From the IMG/VR virus record IMGVR_UViG_2660237933_000006, positions 1 to 10,788 of that record: DNA of 10,788 bases, one strand, 5' to 3'. A model generated the notes under the pieces. That model saw only the letters and a program-made list of their open reading frames with translations, had not been told where the DNA came from and made no database searches. Of this stretch, positions 1 through 10,788 are shown in pieces (the stretch's first letter is position 1; each line of letters begins with the position of its first letter). The translations under genes were made by a program, and so were the position numbers. Source of the DNA: a virus (taxonomy: Duplodnaviria; Heunggongvirae; Uroviricota; Caudoviricetes).

Positions 1-933
1 ATGGACAACGACAAAATTGATCAACACAGCGACGAAATTGAAGTTGAGAGCGAAGAAAAAGAGCGCGGCAAAAAAATAGAAATAGATGAAGACCGACTCC
101 CCTCCCGGGCGATGGCAATTCATGAGCATATCCGCCAGGATGGTGAAAAAGAGCTGGAACGCGACGCAATGGCGCTACTGTGGTCAGCCATTGCGGCGGG
201 TCTGTCGATGGGCGCTTCGTTACTGGCAAAAGGGATATTTCAAGTCGAACTGGAAGGTGTGCCGGGCAGCTTCTTGCTGGAGAATCTCGGTTATACCTTT
301 GGTTTTATTATCGTCATTATGGCCCGCCAGCAATTATTTACCGAAAATACCGTGACTGCGGTACTACCCGTCATGCAAAAACCGACAATGAGCAACGTCG
401 GCTTACTTATACGGTTATGGGGCGTCGTGCTGCTGGGTAATATTCTCGGGACAGGTATTGCGGCGTGGGCATTTGAATATATGCCTATCTTCAATGAAGA
501 AACTCGCGATGCATTTGTCAAAATCGGCATGGATGTGATGAAGAACACCCCCAGCGAGATGTTTGCCAACGCGATCATTTCCGGCTGGCTGATCGCCACT
601 ATGGTTTGGATGTTTCCTGCAGCGGGTGCGGCAAAGATTGTGGTGATTATATTGATGACCTGGCTTATTGCCCTGGGTGACACCACCCATATCGTGGTCG
701 GTTCTGTTGAAATCCTCTATCTGGTGTTTAACGGTACGCTGCACTGGAGCGATTTCATCTGGCCCTTCGCACTACCTACTTTAGCGGGGAACATCTGCGG
801 CGGCACCTTTATCTTCGCGTTAATGAGTCATGCACAGATTCGTAACGACATGAGCAATAAGCGTAAAGCAGAAGCACGCCAAAAAGCAGAACGTGCGGAA
901 AACATTAAGAAAAATTATAAAAACCCGGCATAA
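1..933 (+). CDS. yfdC: Inner-membrane protein of the formate/nitrite transporter (FNT) family, YfdC-like
   Basis: 310-aa ORF beginning at base 1 with ATG. Translation is hydrophobic with multiple predicted membrane helices and a charged N-terminus. It matches my recollection of E. coli YfdC, the gene immediately upstream of argW in K-12. Alternative-frame ORFs inside it are spurious. Confidence 0.8.
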   Translation: MDNDKIDQHSDEIEVESEEKERGKKIEIDEDRLPSRAMAIHEHIRQDGEKELERDAMALLWSAIAAGLSMGASLLAKGIFQVELEGVPGSFLLENLGYTFGFIIVIMARQQLFTENTVTAVLPVMQKPTMSNVGLLIRLWGVVLLGNILGTGIAAWAFEYMPIFNEETRDAFVKIGMDVMKNTPSEMFANAIISGWLIATMVWMFPAAGAAKIVVIILMTWLIALGDTTHIVVGSVEILYLVFNGTLHWSDFIWPFALPTLAGNICGGTFIFALMSHAQIRNDMSNKRKAEARQKAERAENIKKNYKNPA

Positions 934-968
934 ATGGCGAGGGTTTAAGCAATCGAGCGGCAGCGTAC

Positions 969-997
969 TTACCCCGCACTCCATTAGCGGGTATACT
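969..997 (+). promoter_or_regulatory. Candidate sigma70 promoter for argW: -35 TTACCC (969-974), 17-bp spacer, -10 TATACT (992-997), GC-rich discriminator
   Basis: Read directly from sequence. The -10 sits about 11 bp upstream of the mature tRNA 5' end, and the discriminator CATGCCGC is GC-rich as in stringently controlled stable-RNA promoters. The -35 is a weak match. Not experimentally anchored. Confidence 0.35.
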
Positions 998-1008
998 CAT
1001 GCCGCATT

Positions 1009-1083
1009 GTCCTCTTAGTTAAATGGATATAACGAGCCCCTCCTAAGGGCTAATTGCAGGTTCGATTCCTGCAGGGGACACCA
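1009..1083 (+). tRNA. argW: tRNA-Arg, anticodon CCU
   Basis: 75-nt sequence GTCCTCTTAGTT...GCAGGGGACACCA folded by hand into a cloverleaf. Acceptor stem 7 bp (one G-U), D-stem GTTA/TAAC, anticodon stem AGCCC/GGGCT with loop CTCCTAA (anticodon CCT), T-stem GCAGG/CCTGC with loop TTCGATT, discriminator A, encoded CCA. Matches argW, a known prophage integration target. Confidence 0.95.
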
Positions 1084-1178
1084 TTTATCAGTTCGCTCCC
1101 ATCCGTACCAGTCCGCAAAATCCCCTGAATATCAAGCCTTCCGTAGATTCACAGTTCGTAATGGTTCGCGTCAGATCG

Positions 1179-1208
1179 TTGACAGCCGCACTCCATGACG
1201 GGTAAAAA
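1179..1208 (+). promoter_or_regulatory. Candidate integrase promoter: perfect -35 TTGACA (1179-1184), 18-bp spacer, weak -10 TAAAAA (1203-1208)
   Basis: Read from sequence; a consensus -35 hexamer is present but the -10 is a 4/6 match. It overlaps the inverted repeat GGGTAAAAA (1200-1208) described in the findings. Speculative. Confidence 0.25.
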
Positions 1209-1244
1209 GTGGATAAAATAATTTTACCCACCGGATTTTTACCC

Positions 1245-2402
1245 ATGCTCACCGTTAAGCAGATTGAAGCAGCAAAGCCGAAAGAAAAACCATACCGCCT
1301 ACTCGATGGTAATGGCCTGTACCTTTATGTCCCTGTGTCAGGGAAAAAGGTATGGCAGCTTCGCTACAAGATTGACGGTAAGGAGAAAATCCTGACCGTA
1401 GGAAAATATCCGCTAATGACTTTGCAGGAGGCAAGAGATAAAGCATGGACCGCGAGGAAAGACATCTCGGTTGGCATCGATCCGGTAAAAGCGAAAAAGG
1501 CTTCGTCTAACAACAATTCCTTTAGTGCGATTTACAAGGAATGGTACGAGCACAAGAAGCAAGTCTGGTCAGTAGGCTATGCAACTGAACTTGCAAAAAT
1601 GTTTGATGACGACATTTTACCCATCATCGGCGGCCTTGAAATTCAGGATATTGAGCCGATGCAACTGTTGGAAGTAATCCGCAGATTTGAAGATCGCGGC
1701 GCAATGGAGCGAGCCAACAAAGCACGCAGAAGATGCGGCGAGGTTTTCCGTTACGCTATTGTCACCGGAAGGGCTAAATATAACCCGGCACCTGACCTTG
1801 CTGACGCCATGAAGGGATACCGCAAGAAGAACTTCCCGTTTCTTCCTGCAGACCAGATCCCGGAATTCAACAAAGCACTGGCAACATTTTCAGGAAGTAT
1901 CGTATCGCTCATTGCGACCAAAGTTTTACGCTACACAGCCCTCAGAACAAAAGAGCTTCGTTCCATGCTATGGAAGAACGTCGATTTTGAAAACAGGATT
2001 ATCACCATCGACGCCAATGTGATGAAGGGACGCAAAATTCATGTTGTTCCTATGTCAGACCAGGTGGTTGAGCTTCTCACTACGCTAAGCTCCATCACTA
2101 AACCAGTCTCAGAGTTTGTTTTTGCCGGGCGCAACGATAAGAAGAAGCCAATCTGCGAGAACGCGGTATTGCTTGTGATCAAACAAATCGGCTATGAAGG
2201 TCTGGAAAGCGGTCACGGATTCAGGCATGAATTCAGCACGATTATGAACGAGCACGAATGGCCTGCCGACGCCATTGAAGTGCAACTGGCACATGCCAAC
2301 GGCGGATCTGTGCGTGGAATTTACAATCATGCTCAGTATCTCGATAAGCGCAGAGAAATGATGCAATGGTGGGCGGACTGGCTTGATGAAAAGGTAGAGT
2401 GA
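1245..2402 (+). CDS. intS: Prophage tyrosine integrase, P4/CPS-53 (IntS) type
   Basis: Translation MLTVKQIEAAKPKEKPYRLLDGNGLYLYVP... ending ...MMQWWADWLDEKVE matches my recollection of E. coli K-12 IntS (385 aa) almost residue for residue. The C-terminal catalytic region carries R...HxxR...Y-type residues (GHGFRHEF, RGIYNHAQY). The ORF track starts 12 codons upstream at GTG 1209; I chose ATG 1245 by homology although it lacks an obvious Shine-Dalgarno. Confidence 0.9.
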   Translation: MLTVKQIEAAKPKEKPYRLLDGNGLYLYVPVSGKKVWQLRYKIDGKEKILTVGKYPLMTLQEARDKAWTARKDISVGIDPVKAKKASSNNNSFSAIYKEWYEHKKQVWSVGYATELAKMFDDDILPIIGGLEIQDIEPMQLLEVIRRFEDRGAMERANKARRRCGEVFRYAIVTGRAKYNPAPDLADAMKGYRKKNFPFLPADQIPEFNKALATFSGSIVSLIATKVLRYTALRTKELRSMLWKNVDFENRIITIDANVMKGRKIHVVPMSDQVVELLTTLSSITKPVSEFVFAGRNDKKKPICENAVLLVIKQIGYEGLESGHGFRHEFSTIMNEHEWPADAIEVQLAHANGGSVRGIYNHAQYLDKRREMMQWWADWLDEKVE

Positions 2403-2496
2403 GCGGCCTTAAACTATCGAATAGCACAAAGCCTTGCAATACAGTGCAAAGCCTTGTGTGTCTCAGTTTTGTCCTGTGTGCCAGATATTGAATGGC

Positions 2497-3090
2497 CTAC
2501 GCCTCCGGCAGTTCAGGCCAGATGATATCCGGCGCGGTGCTGGTATCTGTTACCGTCACCGCGTCAATGTAATCCAGCACGGCGTTAAGTCGGGTTGTTT
2601 CTGCCTGCGTCAGTTTCCGTCCGGCCTGCAATTTCAGTTGAATCAGACTAATGGAAGCCATTGCAGTATCAATCAGTGACTGACGTTGTGCTTCTGCCGC
2701 GTCTACTGCGGCGCTATGCTGTGCCTCGGTATCCGTCACCCATTTCTCACCATCCCATTTATCGTATGGCGTTAACGGTGAAAGCGTGACATAACCGTCT
2801 TTGATGGCACCGATATAATACACTGTAACAGCTGCGCCATTTTCTGTTGAGTAAACAGTCTCATTGCGATGGTCTTCTTCATGGCTCCATCCCTTACCCG
2901 TAAATACTGCCACTTTCCCCGGAATGTTTTCGCCCGGGTCAATACCAGTGGAACAGGCGGGCATACTTACGCCAGTATTAATATATTCATCAGACCAGCC
3001 CGTATACTCAGATGTTTCAGCATCATAATAAAAACAACGCATATCGCCCGGCACTGTAGCCAGCCCATTTTCATCAAAAACAGGTTTCAT
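2497..3090 (-). CDS. tfa: Tail fiber assembly protein (Tfa; chaperone for the side tail fiber)
   Basis: 197-aa ORF. The C-terminal half has the Tfa motifs I recall from lambda Tfa and T4 gp38-like chaperones (WxGxxWVxDTEA, DTSTAPDIxWPE). Its ATG overlaps the stf stop (TAATG on the minus strand), implying translational coupling. Confidence 0.85.
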   Translation of the reverse strand: MKPVFDENGLATVPGDMRCFYYDAETSEYTGWSDEYINTGVSMPACSTGIDPGENIPGKVAVFTGKGWSHEEDHRNETVYSTENGAAVTVYYIGAIKDGYVTLSPLTPYDKWDGEKWVTDTEAQHSAAVDAAEAQRQSLIDTAMASISLIQLKLQAGRKLTQAETTRLNAVLDYIDAVTVTDTSTAPDIIWPELPEA

Positions 3091-5519
3091 TATTTAGCCC
3101 TCACCAGAAAGTTAAATGCAATATTTCGCGGTCTGACAGCAACAAAATTCACACCATCACCCACAGAGTTACCGGTGAAATTAAATCGTGAAAATCCTGG
3201 CTGATTTCCGGCGATGCCATCATGAAAGTTAATTGCGTGTCCCGCACCTAAGCCTACATTCCCGGCAAAATGAGAAAAGTTTGTAGCTTCCTGCCAGCTT
3301 AATAATTCGCGACCACCATCTGCACCTCGCCCGTCATCCCAGATACGAATGAAATCACCGCGGGCTTCAGGTAATACCAGCGAAGGAAACACTTTCGCCA
3401 GCACAGGGTAATCAGAGGCAGAAAATTTCGCCCCGTTGAACTTCAAAAACACCATACTGGACCAGCTGTCGATTACAGTATTTGGCATTGCAGCGGACGG
3501 CCAGAAGAACGGAACGCCAATAGCTGGAGCACCTTCTCCCAAACCAAGGTAATCAAGAACTCCCTGAGTGCTGGTTTTGCCAAGAATGGCACGTCCAACA
3601 CTTGTCAATGCAGTTAACGCGGCACGATCAACACCTGTGAAATAAGGGAGTTTATCTGCTGCTGTAGCTAGTGCCGCTAGAGCAGTGAGCGTAGCGTCTG
3701 CCGCTTGCTTTCCATTAGCCAAATCATATGCAGCCTTGACAGCTTTCGGTGTGGCGGCCAGCACTTCGGACGTGCTATTGGTAGCACTACTGAGCTGAAC
3801 TATCCCCTTTTTCGTCGTGCTCGCATCCTCAAGCGCCACGGCGGATGCAATATCCTCTGCCCGTTTTGCCGCTGTCTCAGCGCGCGTTGCTGCAGATTCC
3901 GCCGTACTTTTGCTCTGAGCTGCTGCCGTCGCACTGCCAGCTGCCTCTGTCGCCTTCGTGGATGCCGTCGTGGCGCTACCCTTCGCTGCTGACGCCTGTC
4001 TGGTCGCCTCATCTTTTGAAGCAGACGCCGATGAGGCCGATGACGCCGCCGAACTGGCGGACGATGCGGCAGCCGTTTTTGAGGATTCTGCACGGGTTTC
4101 CGACGCTTTCGCGTTCGTTTCGGATGTCTTCGCTGCGGAAGCAGACCTCGCTGCTGCGCTGGCCTGTTCAGTGGCTTCGCCAGCCTTCGTTGTGGCTGTT
4201 GAAGCGGATGATGCGGCGCTTTCTGCCGATTTTCCGGCAGCGGTGGCACTGGCTGAGGCCTGCCCGGCACTTGTTGACGCAGCACTGGCAGACGACGCAG
4301 CCGCTGTTTTTGAACCTGCCGCAGCTGAGGCGCTCTGTCCCGCTGCTGTTTCAGAAGACCTGGCGTTCGTCTCGGACGTCTTTGCCGCCTTCGCGGAATT
4401 TCCTGCCGCCGTTGCCGAGGAAGCGGCACTACTGGCGCTTGATGATGCGTTCGTTTCTGATGATTTCGCTGCCTCTTTTGAGGCCGCCGCATCCCGGGCT
4501 GAGGTGGCAGCTTCTGACGCCTTTGTGGTCGCGGCGGATGCAGAAGTGGCTGCAGATTTTTGTGACGCTGCCGCATTCGTTTCTGACGTTTTCGCGGCAC
4601 TGGCAGATGATGCAGCCGCTGTTTTTGAGCCTGCCGCAGCTGAGGCACTCTGTCCCGCTGCTGTTTCAGAAGACCTGGCGTTCGTCTCGGACGTCTTTGC
4701 CGCCTTCGCGGAATTTCCTGCCGCCGTTGCCGAGGAAGCGGCACTACTGGCGCTTGATGATGCGTTCGTTTCTGATGATTTCGCTGCCTCTTTTGAGGCC
4801 GCCGCATCCCGGGCTGAGGTGGCAGCTTCTGACGCCTTTGTGGTCGCGGCGGATGCAGAAGTGGCTGCAGATTTTTGTGACGCTGCCGCATTCGTTTCTG
4901 ACGTTTTCGCGGCACTGGCACTGGTAGCTGCCGCGCTTTTTGAGGACTCTGCAGCGGCAGCACTTTTTGATGCTTCAGTGGCCTTTGTTGATGCCGTTCC
5001 TGCGCTGGAAGTCGCTGACTGAGCCGACGACGCGGCCTGTCCGGCTGACGTGCTGGCTGCGCGTGCTGAGCCTGCAGCATCAGTCGCATGGGTTGCCGCC
5101 TCACGGGCTGATGTGCTGGCATCACTGGCTGACTTCTTCGCGGCTGCCGTGTTCTGTGCCACCACGGACGCGTTACGCGCCACCTCTTCCACCATCAGCT
5201 CAAAACGGCGCAGTGCCTCCGGACGGGCATCATCCTCCGTCATGGCACCGAGAAAATCATTCAGCGTACCGGGTCGGGAATCTTCATACACGGTAATGGT
5301 CCCGGCATGTGATGGCGGGAATCCCTCCACCAACAGACTGACGCTGTACTGACCATACTCGACGTCCATTGTGTAACGCCCGGCTTCATCCGGGTTTTCT
5401 GAGGCCACTGTGTTCACCACCACCGTGGTGCTGTTGCGCCTGGCCTTTAGCTGAATGGTGCAGTTTTGTATCGGCTTACCTGCGCCATCTTTCAGTACAC
5501 CTGAAATCTTTACTGCCAT
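3090..5519 (-). CDS. stf: Side tail fiber protein (Stf), lambda orf401/orf314 homolog, intact single ORF
   Basis: N-terminus MAVKISGVLKDGAGKPIQNCTIQLKARRNSTTVVVNT... is lambda-Stf-like. A long Ala/Ser/Thr/Lys-rich shaft with SETNA-type repeats is followed by the conserved KLPYF boundary motif and a distal domain ending NIAFNFLVRAK. Start set at ATG 5517-5519 (SD-like GGGG 6-9 nt upstream); the ORF track's GTG at 5523-5525 is an alternative. Confidence 0.85.
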   Translation of the reverse strand: MAVKISGVLKDGAGKPIQNCTIQLKARRNSTTVVVNTVASENPDEAGRYTMDVEYGQYSVSLLVEGFPPSHAGTITVYEDSRPGTLNDFLGAMTEDDARPEALRRFELMVEEVARNASVVAQNTAAAKKSASDASTSAREAATHATDAAGSARAASTSAGQAASSAQSATSSAGTASTKATEASKSAAAAESSKSAAATSASAAKTSETNAAASQKSAATSASAATTKASEAATSARDAAASKEAAKSSETNASSSASSAASSATAAGNSAKAAKTSETNARSSETAAGQSASAAAGSKTAAASSASAAKTSETNAAASQKSAATSASAATTKASEAATSARDAAASKEAAKSSETNASSSASSAASSATAAGNSAKAAKTSETNARSSETAAGQSASAAAGSKTAAASSASAASTSAGQASASATAAGKSAESAASSASTATTKAGEATEQASAAARSASAAKTSETNAKASETRAESSKTAAASSASSAASSASSASASKDEATRQASAAKGSATTASTKATEAAGSATAAAQSKSTAESAATRAETAAKRAEDIASAVALEDASTTKKGIVQLSSATNSTSEVLAATPKAVKAAYDLANGKQAADATLTALAALATAADKLPYFTGVDRAALTALTSVGRAILGKTSTQGVLDYLGLGEGAPAIGVPFFWPSAAMPNTVIDSWSSMVFLKFNGAKFSASDYPVLAKVFPSLVLPEARGDFIRIWDDGRGADGGRELLSWQEATNFSHFAGNVGLGAGHAINFHDGIAGNQPGFSRFNFTGNSVGDGVNFVAVRPRNIAFNFLVRAK
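4291..4920. repeat. Tandem direct repeat, 2 x 315 bp (copy 1 4291-4605, copy 2 4606-4920), inside stf
   Basis: Aligned by hand. Across the 309 bp from 4297/4612 onward the copies differ at 2 positions (gaaCctgcc vs gaGcctgcc; gaggcGctc vs gaggcActc), and the first 6 bp differ at 2 more (gacgac vs gatgat). The period is an exact multiple of 3 and the two encoded 105-aa units are identical. Confidence 0.9.
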
Positions 5520-5530
5520 ATTCACCCCAC

Positions 5531-5583: not shown

Positions 5584-6183
5584 TCAGAATTTATAACCGA
5601 CACCCACGATGAAACCGTCAGTGCGCCAGTCACCACTGCCGGAGCCTTCATAAGCAATATCAATGGCCACGGATTCGGTCGGGTTAAACTGCACGCCAGC
5701 CCCCCACGCCAGAGACGTGTTGCTGTGGCGACCGTCATCACTTCCGGTCAGCACATCGTGCGTTTTCCCCTTGTTGTCAGTTACGCGGAGATAATCTCCG
5801 GAGAAAGTCGACACACGGCTGTAAGACACACCCGCCATCGCATACGCGCTGAACCATTCATTCACGCGCACAGACGGCCCCGCCATCACGCTGAACCAGC
5901 GGTTACGCACGGAATCTTCATGCCAGCGGGTATCGCTGTAACGGGTCAGCTGGCGATTCTTGTCTCCTGCATAGCTGAATGACGTCACCATCCCCAGTGT
6001 GTCCGTAAACTCATAACGGTATTTCACGTTAATCCCGTTCAGATTATCGCTGCCGGGAGCGTTCGTACGGGCATGAAGATACCCTGCGCTCAGTGTGGCC
6101 TGCTGCTCAGACGCCCATGCAGGCGCACCGGATACGGCCAGACAGATGGCTGCGGACAAAATGGCTGCACAAACTTTACGCAT
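5584..6183 (-). CDS. lom: Outer-membrane beta-barrel protein of the Lom/Ail/PagC family (phage moron)
   Basis: 199 aa with an N-terminal signal peptide (MRKVCAAILSAAICLAVSGAPAWA|SEQ). The C-terminus ...AYEGSGSGDWRTDGFIVGVGYKF matches lambda Lom as I recall it and ends in an aromatic residue typical of OM barrels. SD GAGAGG upstream of the ATG. Position between J and stf is as in lambda. Confidence 0.9.
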   Translation of the reverse strand: MRKVCAAILSAAICLAVSGAPAWASEQQATLSAGYLHARTNAPGSDNLNGINVKYRYEFTDTLGMVTSFSYAGDKNRQLTRYSDTRWHEDSVRNRWFSVMAGPSVRVNEWFSAYAMAGVSYSRVSTFSGDYLRVTDNKGKTHDVLTGSDDGRHSNTSLAWGAGVQFNPTESVAIDIAYEGSGSGDWRTDGFIVGVGYKF

Positions 6184-6250: not shown

Positions 6251-9200
6251 TCAGCTGATACTGATGCCTGCGGTGGATTTTTTCATCACCACAACCAGCA
6301 GATCGCTGATACTGGTTGTTGGTGTCCAGTTATTCGCTCCTGATGAAGATACGGTGAATGTCAGTGTCAGCGTCCCCTGTCCGGCAGGCATATCTATAAC
6401 TGAGGAAAATACGCCCTGAGCATCCGTCGTGGACTGATTAAAAATCTCCTGACCATTGCGGGTCACTCTTAACCGGCAGGTTGAATACCAGTATGACTGT
6501 TGGTTATTACTGTTGAAATTCTCATGCTTACCACCGCGGAATAACACTGGCGGTATCATGACCTGCCGGTCAAATTTCTGATCATCACTGATTCTTACCG
6601 TGATGGTGCCACTGGCATAACTGTTCGTGCGGGGGAAAGACTTGCTGACCGTTTTGACAATATCGCCTTCAATCTGATTGGCTGACAGTTTCCCCTTAAT
6701 CTGACAGTTTTCATTAATCGTGACATTGTTGAGCGTCCCTGAATTTGCATTCACATTACCGCTGATATCCGCATTTTTAGCGGTCAGCTTTCCGTCCGGT
6801 GTCAGGGAAAATACCGGAGGATTACCGCCGCTGGTAATGGTGGGAGCCGTCAGGCGTTTCAGGAACACGTCGTTCATGAATATCTGATCGCCCTGCCCAA
6901 CAAACATCGGCTTTGTGTTGCCATTCGCAGGATTAATCATCGCAATCCTGTCTGCCGCCAGCAGCACCTGACTCTGCATGCCGTCAGGGGTGTTCTCAAT
7001 ACCGGCACCAATACCCGCGATATAAAGGCGTCCGTCCTGCATCTGCTGCAGCTTCACAGCCCACATGCTGTTCAGGTTATTATTTGTATCAACCTGAACT
7101 TTCTGTATCTGCTGGATCGCTGCACTCTGGTCTTCCAGTTTCTTATTGACGGTCTGTGTGATTTCATTGCTGACATCCGTAATGGATGTCCTGATTTCAG
7201 CCAGGTCAGGCGCAAGCTGACCGTTATCAATCTGCGTCCACAGCTCCTGAGCCAGATGGGTTTTCCCTATCTCGCCTTTGAAAAAATCCAGATAGCCGGA
7301 TGCATCATCACTCGGCTGACCAACAGCCTCCACGAATGCCGATTTGCCAACGGTGTTCACACTGCGAACGTAAAAATAATAATCATGGCCCGGTTTGATA
7401 TTGATACTGGCGGCTATCCAGTACAGCGCCGTACCAAGATAGCGGGCTGTGGTTTCAACCTGCCTGATATCGGTAATCCGCTTTTCCGAGAACCAGAACT
7501 CAAACTGTACCGTCGGATCATAAACCGCAAGATGCGGCGTGGCGGTTATCTGAAAATACCCCGGCGTCAGCTCAATCCGCGACGGCGCTGCCGGGGCGGC
7601 AATCCGGAACGATACCGACGCCGGATCGCCCTGCTGTCCCCACGCATTTACCGCCCGGACTGTCAGCGTGTACCGCCCCAGCGCCAGTTGCGTGAAGCGG
7701 TATGTGGTTTCTGTCGTCCGGGCCGTGCTGACCAGCCGCTCACTGCCGTCGTCCGCTGCCACGGTCAGGCGAAGCATAAAGCTCACGCCCTTCACCACCT
7801 TCGGTGTGTCCCATCGCGCCAGCACCTGATATTCCCCGCTGTCTGCAGTGACTTCTGCGGTCAGGTGCTGCACCGCTGGCGGCGTGACACCATTCACCGT
7901 GCCACTCTGTTCGCCGTCAAAGTGCGCCCCGTTATCCACGATGGCCTCTTTTTCCGGCACATGCTGCACGGCGGTGATGGCATACGTGCCGTCGTCGTTC
8001 TCACGGATACTCACGCAGCGGAACAGGCGCTGGCGCAGCGTCGGCAGCTTAAGCCCCCACACGCTGTATTCAGCAACACCCTCAGGAACACGGCTCACTT
8101 TTACCTTCACGCCGTCGGTGACGGACTGAACCTCCACGCTGACCGGATTGCCACTTCCGTCAACCAGGCTTATCAGCGTGGTACCGGAGGATGGCAGCGT
8201 GATTTCACGGTCGAGCGTCAGCGTCCGGGTCTGGCTGTTCACCGCCAGCACACGACCACCGGTGCTGATACCGGCATAGTCATCATCGCAGATTTCAATA
8301 ACATCGCCCGGTACATGGCGAAGCCCTTCTGCGCCGACGCTGAAATCCACGGTCTGCGTCTCCAGCAGCTCCGTTTTAATCAGCCACAGCCCGGCGCGGT
8401 GTGCCTGCCCCCGGCTGGTACAGCCAAAGGCATCCATCTTCGTAACATTACGACCGTAACGGGCAATGGCCTGCGTATCTTCAACAAGCTCTGTCGCCGT
8501 CTCCCAGCCGTTGTTCGGGTCAATCCAGTTCACCTCAACGGCATTATGGCGGTCCTTCAGGGCGCTGAAGCTGTAGCGGAACGGCGCGCCATCATCCGGC
8601 ATCACCACATTACTGCGGTTATAGGTCCACACCTTATCTGATGGTCGGTCCTGCACGAACGTCAGCGTCTGCCCGTTCCATACCGGCATACAGCGCATCG
8701 CCGAGCAGAAATCACTGAGCACATCCCACGCCTTACGCTGCGTGGTCAGGTAGGCATTACAGGTGATGCGCGGCTCCGTGCCGCCAAAACCGTCCGGCAC
8801 TGACTGGTCGCAGTACTGGCCGATGACATACAGCGCCCATTTATCCACATCCGCCGCACCAAGACGTTTCCCCATGCCGTAGCGCGGGTGGGTCAGCATA
8901 TCCCACAGACACCAGGCCATGTTGTTGCTGTATGCTGGTTTTAACGTTCCGTCCCAGATACCGCTGTATTGTCGCGTCTGCGGGTTATAGTTCGACGGCA
9001 CCTGCAGAATGCGCCCGCGAAGATGATAATTACGACTCACCTGCTGGCTGCCGAACTGCTCCGAGTCCACCTGTACGCCGACCAGTGCCGTGTTCGGGTA
9101 GCACTGTTTCACATCGATGATTTCGGTGTATGACGACCAGAGCGTTTTGTTCTGCAGCTGGTCTGTGGTGCTGTCCGGCGTCATCCTGCGCATCCGGATA

Positions 9201-9733
9201 TTAAACGGGCGCGGCGGCAGGTTATCCACCACCACCGAGGCCAGATACTGCGAGGTGGTTTTGCCCTTAATGGTGATGTCTTTTTCCGTCACCCAGCCAC
9301 CATTACGCTGTATCTGAACCAGCAGGCGAACTTCCGACGGATTCCGGTCCCCCTTTGAGGTGGTTTCCACCAGTGCCTGCACACCGAAGGTAAAGCGCAG
9401 TCGGTCGATGTTTGCCGACGTGATGGTGCGGGTGATCGGCGTGTCATATTTCACTTCCGTACCCAGCACCGTCTCGGAGCCGGAGGATTCAAACCCCTCC
9501 GGCGGAGTCTGCTCCTGCTCACCTGCCCGGAACACCACCGTGACACCGGAGATGTTGGTATTCCCCTCAGTGTCCAGCACCGGCGTACTGTTCAGCAGCA
9601 CGCTTTTTAAGCCATCCACCGGACCTTCAATCGGGCCTTCACTAATGGCATCAATCACACTCAGCAACTGCGTTGATTTCAGGTTGTCCTTCGCTTCACG
9701 CGGGGTATGCCCCTTACTGCTGCCTTTACCCAT
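6251..9733 (-). CDS. J: Tail tip / host-specificity protein J (central tail fiber)
   Basis: 1160-aa ORF. N-terminus [42 protein letters not shown]... matches lambda J as I recall it, with long similar stretches through the fibronectin-like central region. Size and position (between I and lom) match lambda J, recalled as 1132 aa. Confidence 0.93.
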
Positions 9734-9793: not shown

Positions 9794-10435
9794 TCAGCGA
9801 CCAATCACCACAACCTGACCACCGTCCCCTTCGTCTGCCGTGCTGATCTCCTGAGAAACCACCCGCGACCCCACACGCATTTCACCGTACAGAACAGGCA
9901 GGACATTGCCCTGGGCAACCATGTTATCCAGTGAGGAGAAATAGGTGTTCTGTTTGCCGTTATCCGTTGTCTGTGTACGTGGAGTTTTGGGTTTAGGGGC
10001 CAGCATCTGTGCGACACCACCAAGCGTCATCGCTGCCCCCATAGAAAAGAGAATGTTACTGAAAGCGATACTGATTCCTGGCATCCAGATTGCCGTAGCA
10101 ATCAGCGCCGCCCCCAGCACTGCCTGAAAAACACCACCACTTTTGGCACCCGCCAGACGCGGTACGATGTGGATCACGGCACCATTTGCCAGCGGCTCAT
10201 TAAGACGGGCAGATAATTCGTTTTCGCCTGCATCACGCCCGGCAATCCGTACCTGATACCAGCCGTCGCTCAGTTTCTGACGAAACGCCGGGAGCTGTGT
10301 GGCCAGTGCGCGGATGGCTTCAGCCCCCGTTTTCACACGAAGGTCGATGCGGCGGCCAAATCGTTGCAAATCCCCGTAAAGGCAGATGCGCGCCATGCCC
10401 GGTGACGCCAGAGGGAGTGTGTGCGTCGCTGCCAT
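9794..10435 (-). CDS. I: Tail assembly protein I
   Basis: 213 aa. N-terminus MAATHTLPLASPGMARICLYGDLQRFGRRIDLRVKTGAEAIRALATQLPAFRQKLSDGWYQVRIAGRD and C-terminus ...NVLPVLYGEMRVGSRVVSQEISTADEGDGGQVVVIGR match lambda I from memory. The first 103 nt overlap the 3' end of K in another frame. Confidence 0.9.
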   Translation of the reverse strand: MAATHTLPLASPGMARICLYGDLQRFGRRIDLRVKTGAEAIRALATQLPAFRQKLSDGWYQVRIAGRDAGENELSARLNEPLANGAVIHIVPRLAGAKSGGVFQAVLGAALIATAIWMPGISIAFSNILFSMGAAMTLGGVAQMLAPKPKTPRTQTTDNGKQNTYFSSLDNMVAQGNVLPVLYGEMRVGSRVVSQEISTADEGDGGQVVVIGR

Positions 10436-10788
10436 TTGTCGGTATACCTCTCTCGTTTGCTCAGTTGTTCAGGAATATGGTGCAGCAGCTCGCCGTCGCC
10501 GCAGTAAATTGCGGCGTGATTCGGCACCGATGAACCAAAACAGCACAGCAGCACATCGCCCGGCTGTGCCGCTGACAACGGCACCTGATACAGCCCCGTC
10601 GCCTCCAGATTATCCAGATAGAGATTCTGGCCGTTACGCCACCAGTCATCCTCACGATGAAAGTCCGGCATCTCAATCCCCGCCAGATGATAAGCATCCC
10701 GGAACAGTGTGTAACAGTCCGTCACACCGTGCTCAAAGCGCCGCCCGGTGAGATGCGGCACACAGCGGAACTTATGAATCGCCCCCCG
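10333..10788 (-). CDS. K: Tail assembly protein K, C-terminal NlpC/P60-like part; 5' end lies beyond the window
   Basis: The reading frame is open from the window edge (hand translation of 10762-10788 gives RGAIHKFRC with no stop); the ORF-track start at 10761 is an internal GTG. The translation carries the Cys (VTDCYTLF) and His (HHAAIYCGDG) motifs of NlpC/P60 peptidase domains, as in lambda K. Position upstream of and overlapping I matches lambda. Confidence 0.85.
   Translation of the reverse strand, partial: RGAIHKFRCVPHLTGRRFEHGVTDCYTLFRDAYHLAGIEMPDFHREDDWWRNGQNLYLDNLEATGLYQVPLSAAQPGDVLLCCFGSSVPNHAAIYCGDGELLHHIPEQLSKRERYTDKWQRRTHSLWRHRAWRASAFTGICNDLAAASTFV

Follow-up and report, generated by a model that had tools for sequence, protein, structure and literature searches.

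The cargo-free intS-tfa spacer of an argW prophage is probably a mosaic joint between a boundary hairpin and a tail-fibre cassette relic

The 94-bp spacer that separates the convergent intS and tfa genes of an argW prophage appears to be a composite of the end of the intS module and a relic of a second tail-fibre assembly gene, tfa', rather than a pristine intergenic region or a special element. We consider it likely (probability roughly 0.78) that the spacer is a mosaic joint, in which the end of a KplE1-type integration module with its hairpin meets the tfa' relic, and that this arrangement was derived by deletion or recombination. We regard the cargo-free state as derived because of the tfa' relic itself, a graded series of longer remnants in related phages and prophages, and a solitary crossover-like site in the side tail fibre gene. 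Among temperate coliphages, a mosaic junction of this kind is ordinary, and the locus represents a new combination of known modules.

The window, by which we mean the whole 10,788-nucleotide stretch of DNA that was analysed, comes from assembly GCA_000785795.1, where it occupies the final 10.8 kb of draft contig JRQA01000050.1, a contig that breaks off within K. It contains the following features, listed with coordinates, strand and supporting evidence.

1-933, + strand: yfdC, flanking host gene (ORF table; Pfam Form_Nir_trans)
1009-1083, + strand: argW, tRNA-Arg(CCU), integration target (ARAGORN; Rfam tRNA, 63.4 bits)
1069-1083, + strand: att core CTGCAGGGGACACCA, attL crossover region (single copy; start of the HK633 homology)
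1084-1244, + strand: attL arm and inferred intS promoter region (phage-derived DNA common to HK633 and K-12)
1245-2402, + strand: intS, intact 385-aa P4-family tyrosine integrase (Pfam Arm-DNA-bind_3, Phage_int_M, Phage_integrase)
2403-2422, + strand: intS-linked 3' untranslated stretch (common to K-12 and other argW loci)
2423-2473, unstranded: 51-bp hairpin element, apparent module boundary (loci diverge right after GTTTTGTC)
2472-2525, + strand: putative tfa' (YfdK-type) relic, last 17 codons (translation compared with full tfa' and YfdK)
2497-3090, - strand: tfa, tail-fibre assembly protein, 197 aa (ORF; Pfam Caudo_TAP_N, Caudo_TAP)
3090-5525, - strand: stf, side tail fibre, 811 aa (ORF; matches to lambdoid prophages and phages)
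3533-3552, + strand: solitary Pin-type crossover-like site in stf (17/20 against the inverted repeats of loci L006 and L004)
5584-6183, - strand: lom, Ail/Lom outer-membrane protein (ORF; Pfam Ail_Lom)
6251-9733, - strand: J, tail-tip host-specificity protein (ORF; Pfam GpJ domains)
9794-10435, - strand: I, tail assembly protein (ORF; Pfam Lambda_tail_I)
10333-10788, - strand: K (NlpC/P60), cut by the contig end (Pfam NLPC_P60)

The lambda-type tail order K-I-J-lom-stf-tfa is present with matching Pfam domains, and the tail module gave 94 to 96% nucleotide matches to lambdoid phages and prophages. As in lambda, lom is a moron within the tail module, and it lies outside the slot between int and tfa. 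A contig end within K is typical for repeated lambdoid prophage DNA in short-read assemblies.

The integration module has the published KplE1 layout

The yfdC-argW-attL-intS-hairpin arrangement of CPS-53/KplE1 is the same as that of the window, with 98.0% identity over 2,473 nt (window positions 1-2473 against K-12 yfdC-argW-intS). A previous reading of this DNA from its letters alone (the sequence-only reading) had recognized an IntS-type integrase at argW, and this assignment holds: the protein is identical to K-12 IntS at 383 of 385 residues, and argW (1009-1083) contains the att core. The core forms the 3' end of the tRNA gene, and the corresponding base is where CPS-53 begins in the K-12 record. 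At the DNA level intS is about 97% identical to its K-12 counterpart, yet the differences are nearly all synonymous, which implies that the integrase gene has presumably been kept under purifying selection. Position 1069 is also exactly where homology to phage HK633 sets in, and window positions 1069-2473 correspond to positions 3770-5176 of the HK633 locus (L019) with 96.1% identity.

In the window, argW (+) precedes intS (+) in the same orientation, and the integrase gene is transcribed away from attL. The core at 1069-1083 is upstream of intS, and it had thus been correctly noted that att is placed on the far side of int, unlike in lambda. This position is, however, not a peculiarity of the locus; the att/int layout is already known as the published KplE1/HK620/Sf6 paradigm and is present in the isolated phage HK633. 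In this type of module the tRNA gene lies ahead of int and is read in the same direction, attL and the intS promoter overlap, and the KplE1-type layout is the most frequent tRNA-integrase configuration (PMC2951348). The location of attL upstream of intS follows from the position of attP, which in a KplE1-type module lies between the excisionase gene torI and intS.

HK633 (Hendrixvirinae, Saikungvirus) carries torI, the attP core CTGCAGGGGACACCA, intS and the 51-bp hairpin in order, and its IntS is identical to that of the window at 379 of 385 residues. As in the window, intS converges on a tail-fibre gene over a cargo-free spacer, here of 171 bp, which shows that a viable lambdoid phage can have intS converging on a tail fibre across a short spacer without cargo. 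HK633 differs in that its fibre gene is a phi80-like stf with no accompanying tfa, in its HK022-like tail tip, where the window has lambda J/lom, and in its spacer, which goes on with TGAGTGTTCTACTG... in place of the tfa' relic. We also observed that the att core in the HK633 record (NC_019719) is at 3770, between torI and intS, and that the GenBank attP feature is at 5199-5279, downstream of intS, having been annotated by similarity to the K-12 ykgJ-yagV intergenic region. We flag this attP annotation as probably misplaced.

The spacer between intS and tfa appears composite

The intS gene ends with a TGA stop codon at 2400-2402 (+), and the stop codon of tfa lies on the complementary strand at 2497-2499 (TAG). 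A gene-free convergent spacer of 94 bp (2403-2496) had been described here, in agreement with both the ORF table and the sequence. In all six frames the spacer holds only reading frames too short for a gene, and the listed ORFs that touch it (2434-2679, + strand; 2242-2439, - strand) only run into tfa or intS. A moron or cargo gene between the integrase and the tail-fibre genes is absent, 94 bp being too small for one. A convergent gap of this length is by itself statistically unremarkable; the nonrandom part is its content, which matches other sequences.

Positions 2403-2473 make up the intS-module part of the spacer, and positions 2472-2496 belong to the relic part, which runs on to 2525. 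Homology on the left, which extends to K-12, an O157 prophage and four argW loci, stops with GTTTTGTC at 2473, and homology on the right begins at 2472 in the aligned loci L001, L004, L006 and L008 and in phages HK97 and HK106. From GTTTTGTC, at least four unrelated sequences continue in different genomes among the aligned loci, as follows.

K-12: gtr leader
L005-L008, HK106 and HK633: TAAGCGTTCTACTG...
L004: P4-like island sequence
Window: tfa' relic

Alignment of the locus with K-12 and other argW prophages, which had been proposed together with the sequence-only reading, placed the entry point of cargo right after 2473. The gtrABS genes named for this slot in K-12 by the sequence-only reading are present in the record. 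In K-12, intS is followed by yfdG/yfdH/yfdI (gtrABS), yodE and then tfaS/yfdK/yfdL; in many relatives the slot is occupied by gtr genes, an acyltransferase or nleG7/nleD/nleH effectors; and in the lambda record tfa and int are separated by ea47, ea31, ea59 and attP, spanning 5.25 kb. CPS-53/KplE1 thus differs from the window in the insertion of gtrABS and yodE right after the hairpin. It shares an overlapping convergent gene pair, tfaS/yfdK, that is homologous to the tfa gene and the relic of the window, but in CPS-53/KplE1 the tfaS-type gene is the truncated partner, the orientation is opposite, and the tail genes are largely deleted.

The right part of the spacer matches the end of a Pin-type cassette

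Translation of 2472-2525 (+) gave SCVPDIEWPTPPAVQAR followed by a stop codon, which reads as the C terminus of a YfdK-type tfa' (...PDIEWPTPPAVQAR, stop). Full-length tfa' of L004 and L006 and K-12 YfdK share the last 14 residues of the relic and its stop codon without a difference, and the relic overlaps the 3' end of tfa by 29 nt (2497-2525), as in intact convergent pairs. In the argW prophage of E. coli CRECJHTL34, the 1,523 bp between both breakpoints contain pinE, a gp53-like Sv' gene and a complete tfa'; this is an invertible tail-fibre cassette of the standard Pin/Gin type and has a pair of 20-nt inverted repeats. By its match to such cassettes, we read the tfa' stretch of the window as the relic of a Pin-invertible tail-fibre cassette. 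Related elements form a graded series at the same site.

CRECJHTL34: full pinE-Sv'-tfa' cassette
K-12: gtrABS-yodE-tfaS', with 303 nt of the other partner, tfaS
EcE.CRE.COL: pin fragment and a 123-nt tfa' remnant
HK97 and HK106: relic of ~80 nt
Window, PC6 and FXCREC004: 54-nt relic only
Strain 52F4: acyltransferase at the same breakpoint

HK97 and HK106 are lambdoid siphoviruses without b-region genes, in which int-attP-sib, a few hundred bp, the tfa' relic and tfa follow each other. The 3' half of their tfa is 94 to 95% identical to that of the window, but they have a lambda-type int with attP downstream of it, and their relic is longer.

Intact Pin/Gin/Cin segments (the e14 P region, Mu G and P1 C) comprise a constant part of stf, a crossover site, Sv-tfa and a convergent overlapping tfa', and the CRECJHTL34 argW prophage and the O157 thrW-side prophage served as intact Pin-type comparison loci. 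Measured against these systems, the window retains a crossover-like site, Sv-tfa and the 3' end of tfa' but lacks the invertase, Sv' and the second crossover site, and the switch is dead. The crossover-like site in stf, CTTCTCCCAAACCAAGGTAA (3533-3552), is located at the LGLGE motif and has 3 mismatches in 20 positions, with 0 such sites expected by chance. No partner arm for it was found in the window, whereas relatives carry the 20-nt inverted pair. Likewise, a serine invertase ORF is absent between intS and tfa and elsewhere in the window, although L004 and L006 have one, and of the alternative Sv'/tfa' genes the window has nothing beyond the terminal 17 codons of tfa'.

The joint recurs at several integration sites

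We counted the following junctions and genes among 5,426 complete E. coli genomes.

Exact hairpin/tfa'-relic joint: 52 genomes
Full-length intS: 1,856 genomes
K-12-type hairpin/gtr joint: 405 genomes
'TAAGCG' continuation: 289 genomes

The count of 52 was obtained with word-11 blastn; megablast with a 75-bp query undercounted the joint, at 33 genomes. At argW, the joint occurs with myovirus-type tails (PC6, FXCREC004). It is also present in prophages at dusA, yecD, dacD and torT, where the tails are Mu-like, of another myovirus type or lambda-like and where homology to the window starts at 2423. From 2423 to 2778 extends a shared block consisting of the hairpin, the tfa' relic and the 3' half of tfa.

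The tfa gene is itself mosaic, with breakpoints near 2778 and 3131 where matches end; 2472-2778 is common to many relatives, which then diverge near one or the other of these positions. This pattern fits recombination inside tfa that may have linked different fibre modules.

Origin of the cargo-free state

We propose that the left part of the spacer is the tail end of a KplE1-type attP-intS module that finishes with the common lambdoid boundary hairpin, and that the right part is the last 17 codons of the convergent second tfa' in a Pin-type cassette (Sv-tfa / tfa'-Sv'-pin). A deletion or illegitimate recombination event would have removed pin, Sv' and most of tfa'; in the fullest relative these make up about 1.5 kb. 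Two nucleotides, TC, overlap at the joint, and microhomology this short is weak evidence. Loss of the switch would have locked the tail fibre in one orientation. The block of hairpin, tfa' relic and tfa would then have spread by homologous recombination among prophages with various tails and sites, and in the window it would join the intS module to the lambda-like K-I-J-lom-stf-tfa module.

The sequence-only reading had left two origins side by side, an uninterrupted ancestral arrangement and a deletion joint. The truncated tfa' and the graded series favour a deletion or recombination joint, and the ancestral half of that proposal was not supported. Under it, intS would always have abutted tfa, and the gtr, pin and effector cassettes would be later insertions. 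Isolated phages without cargo do exist, namely HK633 with its 171-bp spacer and HK97 (int-attP-sib, ~230 bp, tfa), and cargo cassettes are clearly mobile. Nevertheless, the right end of the spacer is truncated tfa' coding sequence in the standard overlapping convergent geometry, relics of 54, ~80, 123 and 303 nt and of full length exist, and a solitary crossover-like site has been left in stf. That an inserted cassette should by chance have completed a 54-nt gene end already in place is implausible, and we consider an ancestral arrangement very unlikely.

An equally small chance attaches to an assembly artefact, in which argW-intS would have been falsely joined to the lambda-like tail of another prophage through the ~356-bp repeat at 2423-2778. 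The assembly is a draft, its contig ends inside K in repeated prophage DNA, and the hairpin variant in the window matches tfa-linked copies at non-argW sites with 100% identity. Furthermore, the full combination of argW-intS with this lambda-like stf-lom-J was found in 0 of the 5,426 complete E. coli genomes, its joints being attested separately. Against an artefact, the joint at 2473 is present in the 52 complete genomes, argW loci included, an intS-linked hairpin only 1 nt different from that of the window exists (L007), and lambda-like tails with the same block occur in complete genomes (strain E8). Repeats normally break short-read contigs instead of fusing them, and the composition of the spacer would stay as read even if the contig were chimeric.

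A widespread hairpin marks the border of the integration module

The left part of the joint ends with a hairpin that has a 14-bp stem (2425-2438/2445-2458), the loop ATACAG and a tail of ...CAGTTTTGTC, with TGTCTCAGTTTTGTC after the stem-loop. We located this element at 7,747 places in 4,508 of the 5,426 complete E. coli genomes, and it was never annotated there. Its locations were as follows.

argW: after intS
O157 dacD/sbcB and ybhB sites: after int remnants, followed by nleG7 or nleD/nleH
DLP12-type regions (L015, 4001-4047): between envY and ompT, diverged copies
Lambda-site prophages: adjoining the attR/sib region

At the ybhB site of O157:H7 (L017, 3900-4051), the hairpin follows the 3' remnant of an IntS-like int and lies upstream of nleD/nleH1.

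Phage lambda contains a homologue at 27,473-27,510 (35 of 38 positions identical) in the same orientation relative to int, about 35 nt past the tI/sib hairpin and on the b-region side. This segment of lambda is a second hairpin, with a perfect stem in late-sense RNA, and to our knowledge no function has been assigned to it. Positions 27,545-27,578 of lambda we take to be tI/sib, on the basis of a 10-bp stem followed by T6 and the sib annotation of HK97; in the HK97 record, a 'sib retroregulation site' is annotated on sequence homologous to these positions. In the lambda-site prophage L016, sib/tI is followed by the hairpin and then by the continuation shared with argW loci. Lambda resembles the window in its K-I-J-lom-stf-tfa order, in an int that converges on tfa and in having the hairpin homologue on the tail side of int. 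It differs in that int is separated from the hairpin by attP and sib/tI, Int is lambda-type and not P4/IntS-type, and attB is at gal-bio and not in a tRNA gene. The order is accordingly hairpin-sib-attP-int-xis in lambda and hairpin-intS-attP-torI in the type represented by the window and HK633. Judged from these alignments, the hairpin stands where the integration module borders on the b-region, cargo or tail-fibre side, whatever the type of integrase.

HK97 (~3790-3800) lacks the boundary hairpin, and the T-run of its tI/sib, TTTTTTGTC, is fused straight to GTAAAATCGG... The heptamer TTTTGTC forms the end of both tI and the hairpin element. This suggests that HK97 may have lost the hairpin by a deletion between short repeats, TTTTGTC being common to both.

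The predicted stem is stronger in the tail sense (-19.4 kcal/mol) than in the int sense (-11.7 kcal/mol) because two C.A mismatches become G.U pairs, and the minus-strand fold of the region has a z score of -3.5. A comparison of 12 variants, one of them from lambda, showed fewer mismatches in the tail-sense stem for 8, equal numbers for 3 and more for 1, which is a trend only; G.U pairs occur on the tail-sense RNA in 8 of the 12, with lambda among them. On the plus strand, a T-run begins 7 nt past the stem and is absent in lambda, and the minus strand is without a U-run. A pattern scan of the spacer returned no promoter or terminator, but the same scan also misses lambda tI, whose loop is beyond its limit, and is therefore uninformative. 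Rfam at the gathering threshold found only the tRNA in the whole window, and a permissive Rfam search of 2350-2560 gave matches at chance level only (E >= 1).

Two candidate identities were rejected. The element matches neither the consensus of REP/BIME-type repeats nor that of IHF or arm-type Int sites, and in this module the arm sites are found upstream of intS (PMC2951348).

In RNA, the hairpin probably serves as a terminator, an insulator or a 3'-end stabilizer between the convergent intS and late tail transcripts. With moderate confidence, we place this role more on the tail-sense transcripts coming toward int, and with similar confidence we suggest that such an RNA barrier would shield intS, which is autoregulated (PMC2951348). 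Being short, conserved and repeated, the hairpin probably also serves as a recombination linker for the gain and loss of cargo cassettes. The specific combination, in which a conserved strand-specific RNA element ends, processes or stabilizes late or cargo transcripts and possibly doubles as a linker for module swaps, is one that we put forward tentatively.

A function at the DNA level, as a protein-binding or recombinase site and not an RNA terminator or stabilizer, seems unlikely to us. The element does contain two near-palindromic CAAAGCYTTG motifs 20 bp apart, one per arm, and the arms are direct repeats spaced by two helical turns; several different sequences begin at one and the same base after it; and a canonical U-tract is absent. 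However, the asymmetry between G.U and C.A favours one RNA strand, which a DNA site would not produce, and the hairpin has no associated candidate for a binding protein or recombinase. Sharp boundaries at functional units are, moreover, expected from illegitimate recombination combined with selection.

In line with a role of the hairpin as a linker, the dacD-side prophage of strain E8 carries gtrA-gtrB-glucosyltransferase and an IS5-family element between two direct copies of the hairpin (L013, regions 2373-2505 and 6986-7039); the first copy comes after an int remnant, the second ahead of the tfa' relic. Recombination between hairpin copies placed as in E8 could yield the arrangement of the window, with loss or gain of cargo. 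The stretch at 2403-2422 has no counterpart beside the tfa-linked hairpin copies at other sites, and the presence in the window of a tfa-linked-type hairpin next to this intS-linked stretch is consistent with a crossover at the hairpin. If the hairpin acts as a linker, it would serve to swap integration modules (lambda Int-attP-sib against attP-IntS) and moron cassettes (gtr, nle effectors, ompT/envY), and it would constitute a defined left border of the lambdoid cargo slot.

Implications

The locus carries little weight for biology at large. It does illustrate that a moron slot that looks "empty" need not be ancestral but can have arisen by decay of a tail-fibre inversion switch, and this bears on the reconstruction of prophage host range because the fibre would be locked in one orientation. 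In addition, a very common unannotated hairpin marks cargo beside int, at O157 effector loci, K-12 CPS-53 and DLP12, and it could aid the automated delimitation of cargo regions.

Finally, we observed a 315-bp in-frame tandem duplication in stf (4278-4920; 2.0 copies, 98% identical). The duplicated block encodes a 105-aa Ala/Ser/Thr-rich part of the fibre shaft.
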